Below are positions 4,363-7,314 of a DNA stretch of 50,514 nt, one piece after another. Source of the DNA: a virus (lineage: Duplodnaviria > Heunggongvirae > Uroviricota > Caudoviricetes). The notes beneath the pieces are model-generated. The model did no database searches, was not told the origin of the DNA, and was given only the letters and a program-made list of their open reading frames with translations. The DNA lies in the IMG/VR virus record IMGVR_UViG_2534681773_000022, one strand, 5' to 3'. Each line of letters begins with the position of its first letter. The first letter of the stretch is position 1. A program made the position numbers and the translations under genes.

Positions 4363-4924
4363 TATCGCGTCCTCAACAATGAATTTTGTGATGCGGTGCC
4401 TGGTGCCTCCAGGTGACGTTAACCAGTTAACAATTAACGCCGGATACAGAGAATCCACCCATAACACTGTTTTTGGTTTTAACTGTTCCGCGTGCGCTCA
4501 GCCGCATTCACCACATCACAAAATTCACTTTAAAAAGGGCGGCAGAGCAGTCACGGAGTAAAACTGATACCGCCAAACGTCACCAGAAAATTGATAACAG
4601 AGGGCGTTGCAGCGGGGTTGTCACTTAAGCGTATGGTCAACCTGACAACCCGGTGTCCTCAACGGGGGAAGGAATAACCCCGCCATACTTACCGCCGCGC
4701 CATTTCGCGGATTGCCACAACCGGAAACGCACGGTCGACGAAAATTTAACGACAGGCTATCTATGAACCAGCTACCTCGCCGGGCGCTTTCGCGTTATGG
4801 TCTGACTTTTCAGGGAAATATCCTTTCAGTAAACTGTCAGTGCCGGATGCTCACCCGTGTCCGGCGCACGCACTCCACCTCACCCGTGGAGAACTCCTTA
4901 ATCACCAACCCTCAGGAGGGTGAA

Positions 4925-5200: not shown

Positions 5201-5498
5201 TGCTTTTTGTTGCAAAGTAATTTTCAAGGGGTTCTATTCGAATCCCTTTCTTTTTCATTAACAAGCCAAACCCCTTATCAATGATGTCCATTAGATCCAG
5301 GAAGTATTTTTCATGTAAATCCTGGTTATCAGAGAGCTGCTTCTCTTCGTACAGCCCGATAAAGGCTCGGCGTACGTTACCGGATATATTGTCGATGGTT
5401 TCTTTTTCTACGGTACTCAGGTCAAGAGTCGCCAGTTGAGAGCGAACCACATTCGATGCCATTTCCTGGAATGGTACTGGTAAATCTTTAAATTCCAT
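5178..5498 (-). CDS. Hypothetical early-left protein
   Basis: 106-aa ORF (MEFKDLPVPF...) with GAGG 6 nt upstream; second gene of the leftward operon. Confidence 0.45.
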   Translation of the reverse strand: MEFKDLPVPFQEMASNVVRSQLATLDLSTVEKETIDNISGNVRRAFIGLYEEKQLSDNQDLHEKYFLDLMDIIDKGFGLLMKKKGIRIEPLENYFATKSINSFDSK

Positions 5499-5509
5499 CG
5501 TCAACCTCA

Positions 5510-5743
5510 TCAGTCAGTGTTTCTGGTTAACCAGCGACGCGCGCCAGCTTCAGTTTTAAACGTTTTGCTTCTGGTATATGTCATCGCGGTAAACGTGCCG
5601 TCCTGGTTGGGAAACACGCCGCATACCAGAGATTCGTTGTTGCCAAGATTGAGCATATCCATGTTGACCTCATTTCCCCTTAACGCCGGGGTAGCGGAAC
5701 AAAAACCTGCTGCATAGTTATTAAAGTTGAACCCTGCCGTCAT
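5510..5743 (-). CDS. Hypothetical early-left protein (first gene downstream of pL)
   Basis: 77-aa ORF on the leftward strand directly downstream of the predicted pL; no recognisable N-antiterminator features. Confidence 0.4.
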   Translation of the reverse strand: MTAGFNFNNYAAGFCSATPALRGNEVNMDMLNLGNNESLVCGVFPNQDGTFTAMTYTRSKTFKTEAGARRWLTRNTD

Positions 5744-5843
5744 GTTCTTACGCCTCGGGCTGGCTACTTAACCCCTGACCACTGCCTGGTAACTCGAGGT
5801 ATTGCCCTGTATTGTGTGGGACGGGATGGGTTGGTATGGGAAA

Positions 5844-5872
5844 ACTATAGGAAATGCCTAATTACTTGTCAA
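5844..5872 (-). promoter_or_regulatory. pL-like early leftward promoter (-35 TTGACA, 17-bp spacer, -10 TATAGT)
   Basis: On the minus strand: TTGACA at 5867-5872, TATAGT at 5844-5849, exactly 17 bp apart, overlapping GCCTAAT operator half-sites. Confidence 0.6.
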
Positions 5873-5887
5873 TAGGCTATGCCTAAT
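5871..5887. promoter_or_regulatory. OL operator (AATAGGC-TAT-GCCTAAT inverted repeat), with extra half-sites at 5856-5862 and 5898-5909
   Basis: 17-bp near-palindrome sharing the GCCTAAT half-site with the OR operators; overlaps the -35 of pL. Confidence 0.55.
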
Positions 5888-5980
5888 AATTTGGGCGCAA
5901 CCTAATAGGTGATGGTTTGTGGGAGAGGTAGTAGGAGTTAACTAACGGGAACTAGGAATTTCCCGTCGGACCATATAAGT

Positions 5981-6457
5981 TTAAGTTCCTGTCTTGGTGA
6001 TGTTCTGGCTTTTCCGTTTTGATTCTTGATTTTTCAGATAGTTAGCTACCTTCATTTCCATTGCGGCAATGTAGGCGCGAACGTCATGATCAACCCAACT
6101 AGGCTCCGTAGCATTTCCAGATAAGATGAAAGCCACAATTGCTCTTTTTTCATCAGAGGCGGCTTGATAAAGGCTGTTTATGTCTAAAAGTTCACTTTTT
6201 GTATCTGAAGTGGATGGGGTTGGTATGGGGTATTCGTTAAGCCCCCAATGCTCTGGACCAACCACATCAGAAAAGAAACGCCATAGTTCTGGAAGTTTGT
6301 CTTTACTTATCGAACCTTTCTTAATCCAGTCATGGATTGATGGTGGTTGGACTTTGAAATGACGTGCGATTTCCGCCTTTGATTTGACGGCTCCTGATGC
6401 AATTTTTTTGTTAATGGCCTGCTCTATCGCTCGGCCTAAGTCTTTACCACTAAGCAT
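5981..6457 (-). CDS. CI-like prophage repressor (HTH DNA-binding protein)
   Basis: 158-aa ORF divergent from the cro-like gene and flanked by palindromic operators on both sides; HTH-like segment AEIARHFKVQPPSIHDWIKKG. Confidence 0.75.
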   Translation of the reverse strand: MLSGKDLGRAIEQAINKKIASGAVKSKAEIARHFKVQPPSIHDWIKKGSISKDKLPELWRFFSDVVGPEHWGLNEYPIPTPSTSDTKSELLDINSLYQAASDEKRAIVAFILSGNATEPSWVDHDVRAYIAAMEMKVANYLKNQESKRKSQNITKTGT

Positions 6458-6509
6458 TGCTTAATAGTCTCCTATGCGCATCGCGTTAGGCAATCCCTAC
6501 TCTCGATGT

Positions 6510-6552
6510 ATTAGGCATAGCCTATTGACAATTTCATTAGGCTAAGCCTAAT
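6510..6552. promoter_or_regulatory. OR operators: ATTAGGC-ATA-GCCTATT (6510-6526) and perfect palindrome ATTAGGC-TAA-GCCTAAT (6536-6552)
   Basis: Two 17-bp inverted repeats in the repressor/cro intergenic region, bracketing and overlapping the pR -35 and -10. Confidence 0.65.
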
Positions 6553-6554
6553 AT
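6525..6554 (+). promoter_or_regulatory. pR-like early rightward promoter (-35 TTGACA, -10 CTAATA/TAATAT)
   Basis: TTGACA at 6525-6530 with a -10-like hexamer 17-18 bp downstream, about 30 bp upstream of the cro-like start. Confidence 0.55.
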
Positions 6555-6581
6555 TGTTGCGTGTTTTTTGGAGTTCATTCG

Positions 6582-6905
6582 ATGAAAAAAGATAACTATT
6601 CATTCAAACGAGCTTGTGCTGTTGTCGGTGGGCAATCAGCAATGGCTAGGCTTTTAGGTGTATCTCCTCCAAGCGTAAATCAATGGATCAAAGGTGTACG
6701 TCAGTTACCTGCTGAGAGATGTCCTGCGATTGAACGAGCAACAAAAGGTGGTGTCCTGTGTGAAGAACTTCGTCCTGATGTTGATTGGACATACTTACGA
6801 CGCTCGTCATGTTATTCGCAGAATATGTCGATGAAGCAACCAAATGACGAAAACGATCATACCCGAAGCATCAAGAGGCAAATGATTCATGAAAATCAAA
6901 CATGA
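6582..6905 (+). CDS. ydaS: Cro/CI-type HTH regulator, YdaS-like
   Basis: Translation (MKKDNYSFKRACAVVGGQSAMARLLGVSPPSVNQWIKG...) matches the remembered Rac-prophage YdaS; GGAG RBS; first rightward gene. Confidence 0.75.
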   Translation: MKKDNYSFKRACAVVGGQSAMARLLGVSPPSVNQWIKGVRQLPAERCPAIERATKGGVLCEELRPDVDWTYLRRSSCYSQNMSMKQPNDENDHTRSIKRQMIHENQT

Positions 6906-7314
6906 GCACATCCGCATGGCGATGAATGCCTGGGCATACCCTGATGGTGAGAAAGTTCCTGCAGCTGAAATAGCCCGGACTTATTTCGAACTGGGGATGA
7001 CGTTCCCTGAACTGTACGACGACAGCCATCCGGAAGCCCTGGCCCGTAATACCCAGAAAATTTTCCGTTGGCTGGATAAAGACACCCCTGATGCTGTTGA
7101 AAAAATGCAGGCTCTGTTACCGGCGATCGAAAAGGCGATGCCGCCTTTGCTGGTGGCCCGTATGCGCAGCCACAGTTCTGAATATTACCGTGAGATCGTC
7201 GAACGGAGGGATCGGCTGGTGAAGGATGTCGATGATTTTGTTGCGTCAGCGGTTGTTTTGTATGACCAGATGAATCGCGGCGGCCCGGCAGGGAATGCTG
7301 TGGTGATGCACTAA
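6889..7314 (+). CDS. ydaT: YdaT-like protein (CII-like regulator / putative toxin partner of YdaS)
   Basis: 141-aa ORF beginning MKIKHEHI, overlapping the end of ydaS; matches the remembered Rac YdaT N-terminus and length. Confidence 0.7.
   Translation: MKIKHEHIRMAMNAWAYPDGEKVPAAEIARTYFELGMTFPELYDDSHPEALARNTQKIFRWLDKDTPDAVEKMQALLPAIEKAMPPLLVARMRSHSSEYYREIVERRDRLVKDVDDFVASAVVLYDQMNRGGPAGNAVVMH

Follow-up and report, generated by a model that had tools for sequence, protein, structure and literature searches.

A probable Rac-type immunity switch with one type of 17-bp operator at both early promoters of an Escherichia coli prophage integrated at ompW

The IMG/VR record IMGVR_UViG_2534681773_000022, a 50,514-nt stretch of Caudoviricetes DNA (hereafter the window), contains close to its beginning a gene for a 158-aa repressor that is bracketed by 17-bp inverted repeats (dyads) lying over two divergent predicted early promoters, pL and pR. 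The genes, promoters and sites of this locus are listed in Table 1. Several E. coli chromosomes contain the 1.25-kb region with 100% identity, annotated there as racR, a helix-turn-helix protein and a YdaT-family gene, and some match to it was found in 3754 of 5426 complete E. coli genomes. The analyses described below make it very probable that this control region is the immunity switch of a Rac-type prophage, in which a single type of 17-bp site covers both early promoters. The right half of this element is already known from the Rac prophage of E. coli K-12; the small additions made here concern the left cassette and the pattern seen across the family.

The 158-aa open reading frame (ORF) that the initial annotation had designated as the repressor is present between the two clusters of sites and is best read as the RacR orthologue, i.e., the predicted repressor of the prophage. 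Its product matched the NCBIfam equivalog model NF049929 with 246.3 bits (cut-off 200) over residues 1–145, and 144 of 158 residues (91%) are identical to those of K-12 RacR. The AlphaFold2 model of the protein (mean predicted local distance difference test (pLDDT) score of 80) consists of five N-terminal helices (approximately residues 1–73, pLDDT ~85), a disordered linker (residues 80–90) and an all-helical C-terminal domain. When the model was compared with the PDB using Foldseek, the list was led by XRE proteins, lambda cI, Cro, restriction-modification controllers and HipB, with a best E-value of 0.077 and none at or below 0.001. A sequence search of the PDB with RacR gave no relevant match.

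The whole 50.5-kb window was searched for the dyad ATTAGGC-N3-GCCTAAT with up to three mismatches. Eight matches were obtained, seven of which lie between positions 5846 and 6552, whereas 100 dinucleotide-preserving shuffles of the window gave a mean of 1.81 matches and a maximum of six, so that none reached the observed number. The bare 7-mer GCCTAAT is not enriched across the window (seven found versus 5.2 expected), and the signal above chance is the dyad arrangement and its clustering rather than the 7-mer itself. The eighth match (positions 24333–24349, three mismatches) was treated as a chance occurrence, as 1.8 such matches are expected in the window. The three inverted repeats described in the initial annotation (OL2, OR2 and OR1), with their ATTAGGC/GCCTAAT half-sites and 3-bp spacer, were all recovered, and OR1 is indeed a perfect palindrome, without mismatches and self-complementary save for the unavoidable central base. 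The number of sites had to be revised. On the right there are four dyads instead of two, since OR3 and OR4 are added, and what had been called partial sites on the left, next to OL2, is better read as a second site, OL1, and a doubtful third. The spacer and one half-site of OR4 are formed by the first racR codons (ATG CTT A..). Centre-to-centre distances are 26, 25 and 36 bp between successive right sites, 25 bp between OL1 and OL2, and 639 bp from OL2 to OR2. Within a dyad the half-site centres are 10 bp apart, so that both halves face the same side of the DNA; a helix-turn-helix dimer would be expected to show this spacing.

A promoter scan of positions 5400–7000 gave exactly two sigma-70-like promoters, pL with 11 and pR with 10 of 12 consensus positions, and these are the divergent promoters whose consensus-like −35 and −10 hexamers the dyads had been said to overlap. 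Moreover, the segments 5866–5888 and 6509–6531 form a perfect 23-bp inverted repeat, i.e., pL and pR have the same −35/operator module in mirror orientation.

Table 1. Features of the racR control region and its surroundings in the window (strand is given as + or −; a dot marks sites without strand; mismatches are counted against ATTAGGC-N3-GCCTAAT).
Feature	Position	Strand	Remarks
DicF small RNA gene	4537-4588	-	Rfam RF00039, 76.7 bits
First ORF downstream of pL, DUF1391 (YdaF-like)	5510..5743	-	Pfam PF07151, E 4.7e-28
pL, predicted leftward early promoter	5844..5872	-	-35 TTGACA 5872-5867, 17-nt spacer, -10 TATAGT 5849-5844
OL1 TATAGGAAATGCCTAAT	5846..5862	.	3 mismatches; covers pL spacer and 4 bp of -10 hexamer
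OL2 AATAGGCTATGCCTAAT	5871..5887	.	1 mismatch; overlaps pL -35 hexamer by 2 bp
Candidate OL3 TTTGGGCGCAACCTAAT, doubtful	5890..5906	.	3 mismatches; 19 bp centre-to-centre from OL2
racR, predicted 158-aa prophage repressor (CI analogue)	5981..6457	-	NCBIfam NF049929
OR4 ACTAAGCATTGCTTAAT (= O3 of PMC9638921)	6449..6465	.	3 mismatches; over racR ATG (6457-6455)
OR3 GTTAGGCAATCCCTACT	6485..6501	.	3 mismatches; in racR promoter region, clear of pR
OR2 ATTAGGCATAGCCTATT	6510..6526	.	1 mismatch; overlaps pR -35 hexamer by 2 bp
pR (PydaST)	6525..6554	+	-35 TTGACA 6525-6530, 18-nt spacer, -10 TAATAT 6549-6554
OR1 ATTAGGCTAAGCCTAAT (= O1 of PMC9638921)	6536..6552	.	0 mismatches; covers pR spacer and 4 bp of -10 hexamer
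ydaS, Cro-like helix-turn-helix, first gene of pR operon	6582..6905	+	Pfam PF15943, PF14549
YdaT-box ATGATTCATGAAAATCAA, overlaps ydaT start codon	6882..6899	.	exact match to K-12 YdaT footprint
ydaT, CII-like regulator, second gene of pR operon	6889..7314	+	Pfam YdaT_toxin PF06254, E 2.8e-10

The right half of the region has a characterised counterpart in the K-12 Rac prophage, where RacR represses ydaS-ydaT and its binding at the right sites has been demonstrated (PMC5700373, PMC9638921). Krishnamurthi et al. described three variant GCCTAA/TTAGGC repeats in the K-12 racR-ydaS intergenic region and showed three RacR-DNA complexes by electrophoretic mobility shift assay as well as enrichment by chromatin immunoprecipitation with quantitative PCR (PMC5700373). 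Using DNase I footprinting with RacR, Wisniewska et al. defined the monomer site 5'-ATTAGGC-3' and the inverted repeat (T/A)TAGGC-N3-GCCTA(T/A), and named the operators O1 (over the ydaS promoter), O2 and O3 (over the racR ATG); the O1 position was protected first, at the lowest RacR concentration, and the equivalent of OR2 falls in the protected region (PMC9638921). Four operators in the intergenic region, together with a YdaT footprint on ATGATTCATGAAAATCAA at the ydaT start, were reported by Wons et al. (PMC11879457). A single ydaS start with −35 TTGACA and −10 TAATAT was mapped by primer extension and was abolished by substitution of the −10 (PMC9638921, PMC11879457), and a leaderless racR transcript has been reported (PMC9638921). 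As K-12 has the same arrangement of sites on the right and these have already been footprinted, an element known from earlier work was found again here as far as the right half is concerned. Most of the experiments proposed in the initial annotation have been published for the right side, on the 91%-identical K-12 allele.

The direct comparison with K-12 Rac showed the same half-site, 17-bp dyad and 3-bp spacer, four right sites including the one over the racR ATG, and the same layout on both sides of racR, left sites included. The hexamers of the ydaS promoter, their 18-bp spacing and the YdaT-box are all identical to those of the window. The 17-mers of OL2 and OR4 are unchanged in K-12 (that of OL2 also occurs in phage vB_EcoS-683R6), while the K-12 equivalents of OL1, OR3 and OR2 are TATAGGTAATGCCTAAT, ATTAGGCAATCCCTACC and ATTAGGCACAGCCTATT, respectively, and the candidate OL3 has four mismatches there. 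Differences were found in the −10 boxes reported for two K-12 racR promoters (AGTAAG and GAGAAT), which are altered in the window, and in spacer and linker bases. For the K-12 reverse promoter inside ydaS (PracR4), inspection by eye placed the corresponding window hexamers about 21 nt apart, one of them altered. Counted over the whole region, 5 of 98 half-site positions differ between the window and K-12 versus 50 of 223 other non-coding positions (one-sided Fisher p = 4.4e-5), and the contrast was seen on each side: 2/42 versus 35/147 on the left and 3/56 versus 15/76 on the right. This pattern points to selection acting on the half-sites.

To place the region in a wider context, one genome per species was scanned, which gave 28 loci encoding a repressor with a RacR-type N-terminal domain, in Escherichia, Mixta, Morganella, Proteus, Klebsiella, Erwinia, Achromobacter, Burkholderia, Pigmentiphaga, Nitrosomonas and Hydrogenophaga. 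Nearly all of them have dyads at the fixed offsets −8, −43 and −68 from the repressor ATG, and most loci that show any downstream dyads have a pair 25 bp apart. Of the deposited phage genomes, that of Escherichia phage vB_EcoS-683R6 shares all seven sites with the window, and that of Klebsiella phage KpF5 has three upstream sites and a downstream pair. A position-frequency logo built from 97 sites was discarded, because the sites had been selected by the motif and the logo was circular; an alignment of the upstream regions made without regard to the motif, and the substitution test described above, were used instead. In that alignment the invariant columns fall exactly on the half-site cores (AGGC, GCCT, ATTGCC and ATGCTTA), and the linkers vary. 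The ATGCTTA columns do not vary among 23 loci, and Met-Leu is kept in nearly all of the proteins; such a dyad over the start codon is consistent with the leaderless racR transcript of K-12. These results bear on the simplest alternative, that the repeats are chance palindromes or scars of recombination without any regulatory role. Only the ordinary frequency of the bare half-site in the window speaks for it, while the clustering of dyads unmatched by any shuffle, the fixed offsets in distant bacteria, the substitution pattern and the published footprints (PMC9638921) all count against it. Together with the conservation they already refute this explanation, whose probability we regard as negligible.

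A different question is which protein the dyads serve. They could be mainly targets of the Cro-like YdaS, or be shared by RacR and YdaS as the lambda operators are shared by CI and Cro, YdaS then being the relevant protein at some of them. The window YdaS matched the Pfam families YdaS_toxin (PF15943, E 3.8e-30) and P22_Cro (PF14549, E 1e-8), and in 25 of the 28 dyad loci the repressor gene is faced by a divergent gene of the YdaS type. The N-terminal domain of the repressors also bears a faint likeness to YdaS, as seen from a sub-threshold YdaS_toxin match in one homologue (L022) and from tblastn matches of YdaS inside two repressor genes. In addition, the footprints of the repressor PaaR2 and of YdaS overlap in prophage CP-933P (PMC8630535), and YdaS represses its own promoter in K-12 (PMC9638921, PMC11879457). 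On the other hand, purified RacR alone protects such sequences, and it was DNA protected by RacR that yielded the ATTAGGC logo; RacR is a stronger repressor of ydaS than YdaS itself, and K-12 YdaS did not repress racR, unlike in lambda-type logic (PMC9638921). This alternative is thus possible but rather doubtful, and sharing of the sites with YdaS would add to the assignment of the dyads to RacR, not replace it.

The left side of the region has no such published counterpart among the papers that we found. The left cassette ATTAGGCnnnGCCTATTGACA-n4-ATTAGGCnnnGCCTAATAT combines a consensus −35 with a −10-like hexamer, and a dyad overlaps each of the two. It was found in 14 loci, the window among them, from Escherichia to Achromobacter/Burkholderia (Gamma- and Betaproteobacteria); it is present in K-12 and in 13 further loci of other bacteria. 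In other genera the homologue of OL1 is an almost perfect dyad, again with 25-bp spacing. The candidate OL3 is confined to the Escherichia lineage and absent from other genera. In K-12, lowering RacR raises the transcripts of the early-left genes ydaF, ydaG, kilR, ydaE and racC 40- to 70-fold (PMC6765115, PMC11014345), and silencing of racR derepresses kilR, ydaE, ydaG, racC, recE, recT, ralR, xisR and intR (bioRxiv 10.64898/2026.09.06.749655). These transcriptome data fit a leftward promoter controlled by RacR, although they do not demonstrate direct control.

It could be argued that the right sites alone are functional and that the left dyads and the "pL" are a relic of duplication, early-left control being indirect, through read-through from racR or through YdaS/YdaT. 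The literature search, which covered the older sbcA/recE papers only a little, yielded no description of operators or a promoter downstream of racR and nothing usable on genome-wide RacR binding or on sbcA operator mutations, so that no published binding or start-site data were found for the left side; one group describes the RacR regulon as not yet characterised in detail (PMC11014345). OL1 has three mismatches, and racR and pL are co-directional with no convincing terminator between them. Against a relic stand the retention of the cassette in 14 loci of two proteobacterial classes, even where other genes separate it from the repressor, the low number of changes in the left half-sites relative to the neighbouring non-coding positions, the 11 of 12 consensus positions of pL, and the analogous PL of CP-933P, which has operators like those at PR and is active and regulated (PMC8630535). 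We therefore consider a relic improbable and take the left cassette to be a genuine pL/OL, and we infer that RacR binds OL1 and OL2 and that pL is active.

Several observations weigh against the interpretation of the region as a RacR-operated switch with operators on both sides. RacR matched no Pfam family at E ≤ 0.01, neither an S24 peptidase domain nor a DNA-binding domain, and its fold matches to helix-turn-helix proteins are all non-significant. OL1, OR3, OR4 and the candidate OL3, with three mismatches each, are individually not callable. The published RacR binding that we found concerns the K-12 right sites only, with none for left sites in any allele, and both binding and transcription are extrapolated from K-12 to the allele of the window. 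Finally, the rise of the early-left transcripts could be indirect, via YdaS/YdaT or via read-through from racR, which is transcribed in the same direction as pL.

Under the RacR-operated switch, RacR would bind as a dimer to the 17-bp dyads ATTAGGC-N3-GCCTAAT. Bound at OR1 and OR2 it would exclude RNA polymerase from pR, leaving ydaS, ydaT and the replication genes silent, and at OR3 and the ATG dyad, which cover the racR promoter and the leaderless start, it would limit its own synthesis. On the left, RacR at OL2 and OL1 would silence pL and with it the ydaF-like gene, DicF, DicB, the exonuclease, xis and int. Thus, the probable silencing targets of RacR in this prophage are ydaS-ydaT and the listed leftward genes from DicF to int. 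The dimeric mode of binding, and any cooperativity, are presumed; the left cassette lies ~640 bp from the right operators and may loop with them. Because RacR is without the LexA-type (S24) self-cleavage domain, induction would not be expected to proceed through RecA-stimulated self-cleavage. The Gifsy-/SPC32H-type repressors (PMC3121763; PDB 5d4z, 5d50) are likewise short helix-turn-helix proteins without S24 and are inactivated by antirepressors. The structure 5d4z was among the fold matches of RacR at a non-significant E-value of 0.21, which makes it a lead on induction rather than demonstrated kinship. The RefSeq annotation of E. coli strain EC21Z-078 lists no antirepressor gene in the near-identical stretch, a screen that did not extend to the window's own ORFs.

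In phage lambda, a leftward repressor gene lies between multi-site operators made of 17-bp dyads that cover the divergent pL and pR. The region described here has the same architecture as the CI/Cro/OL/OR system, with a divergent Cro-like and then a CII-like gene and with a repressor start that suits a leaderless transcript, from which a similar function may be supposed. The two systems differ in several respects: RacR does not resemble CI in sequence and lacks the S24 domain; there are four right sites instead of three, one of them in the coding start; the spacing of the sites in the window is 25–26 bp; and there are no rex genes, so the left and right sites are only ~640 bp apart. The comparison with lambda was also drawn for K-12 RacR (PMC5700373, PMC9638921). 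Prophage CP-933P of E. coli O157:H7 has the same gene order and logic in its PaaR2/YdaS/YdaT system, with several intergenic palindromes, and the −35 and −10 of its PL are identical to those of PR and are accompanied by matching operators, which parallels the 23-bp mirror copy in the window (PMC8630535). However, its repressor is a different one, its palindromes are of 18 bp with the consensus half GTTTAGTAA, and its repressor operon includes a toxin-antitoxin pair that is absent here.

Comparison of the 28 loci also suggests how the Escherichia version of the region may have arisen. Most family members have three right dyads, over the ATG, over the −35 of pR and over the −10 of pR. In the Escherichia lineage (the window, K-12-type strains and E. 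ruysiae) a further module of 26 bp is present towards ydaS and brings the right sites to four; pR is located there one operator further out, and OR3 is the homologue of the −35 dyad of other genera, with TTGACA lost. As the added module mirrors that of pL, its sequence suggests duplication or conversion from the left side. The module may have moved pR outward and left one dyad for autoregulation alone.

The C-terminal part of the repressors varies as well. An S24 domain (PF00717) was detected in 8 of 10 tested homologues from other bacteria. The fusions belong to loci L012, L017, L020, L021, L022, L024, L025 and L029, proteins P0101, P0102 and P0114 carry the domain as well, and they come from Betaproteobacteria and some Gammaproteobacteria; the tested RacR proteins of Enterobacterales have an unrelated helical C-terminal domain in place of S24. 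To judge from these sequences, this looks like a domain swap in which the operator code was kept. Beyond the literature that we found, the left operator/promoter, the four versus three right operators and the operator code shared by repressors with different C-terminal domains are thus modest extensions of what is known. That all three hold together, i.e., a pL/OL cassette bound by RacR, a fourth Escherichia operator derived from the mirrored pL module, and one cassette of N-terminal domain, dyads and YdaS joined to interchangeable C-terminal domains, is in our estimate an even chance. If true, one operator code would be wired to different induction signals through swapped C-terminal domains.

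The window begins with the end of a prophage integrase gene, adjoining ompW. Its first 8.8 kb are collinear with strain EC21Z-078 at 99.6% identity, and other segments match this strain at 89–99.6%. About 21 kb of phage DNA (positions 22143–43070) are without a match in the ompW-integrated prophage of EC21Z-078, in which the annotation shows the tail and terminase genes as fragments; the window prophage appears much more complete. Based on the gene identities, the ompW/integrase context and the comparison with EC21Z-078, the window is a fairly complete Rac-like lambdoid prophage of E. coli integrated at ompW. Compared with K-12 Rac, it is much more complete, lies at ompW, and has in its early-left operon DicF/DicB and a different exonuclease where K-12 Rac has kilR and recET. 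The initial annotation had proposed that the operators define the immunity specificity of the prophage. A Rac-type immunity agrees with our results, while a specificity private to this prophage does not, because the half-site is common to the whole RacR family. For annotation purposes, this 50-kb ompW-integrated prophage can be assigned to the Rac immunity group, and cross-repression is therefore expected in both directions between it and any resident Rac element.

Among the flanking genes, the YdaT encoded in the window is only ~31% identical to K-12 YdaT, so that the region is mosaic in its ydaT part. The exact 18-mer of the YdaT-box is its sole match in the window, and it has been kept exactly although the protein itself has diverged to that extent. 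For the first ORF downstream of pL, RefSeq annotates a shorter form of 50 aa in EC21Z-078. The DicF gene is full-length (76.7 bits versus an Rfam gathering score of 48) and belongs to the early-left operon, where it precedes a dicB homologue, which is annotated in EC21Z-078. Since both lie in this operon, DicF and DicB would be under the control of pL and RacR, unlike in the Qin prophage, where DicA has this role.

The scan of positions 5400–7000 did not reveal a terminator between racR and pL; a hairpin at approximately 5946–5967 was rejected as a candidate, as it folds no better than its shuffles (z = −0.39). A 13-nt exact direct repeat, GGGTTGGTATGGG, is present at 5828–5840, just downstream of the −10 of pL, and at 6217–6229 inside racR, and may be due to chance. 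The OR4 segment (6449–6465) also contains CTAAG-N5-CTTAA, a box for the restriction-modification regulator C.Csp231I, and this 17-mer is the same as the off-target site of that regulator in K-12. The C-boxes of C proteins consist of CTAAG-N5-CTTAG repeats upstream of the C-protein gene and are bound by its own product. As the segment in the window sits at the start of racR and not upstream of such a gene, it was rejected as a C-box locus and regarded as a cross-talk site only. With the identical 17-mer at the racR start, the window prophage should be open to the same lethal cross-talk as K-12 (PMC9638921). Finally, one of the loci (L004), on a 5.2-kb contig labelled as a Candidatus Nanosynbacter bin (JARKOR010000130.1), has an E. 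coli-type racR region with the same dyad layout and a repressor 91% identical to the window RacR; the repressors of L002 and L003, both E. coli loci, show the same identity. The contig most likely entered the bin as a contaminant.

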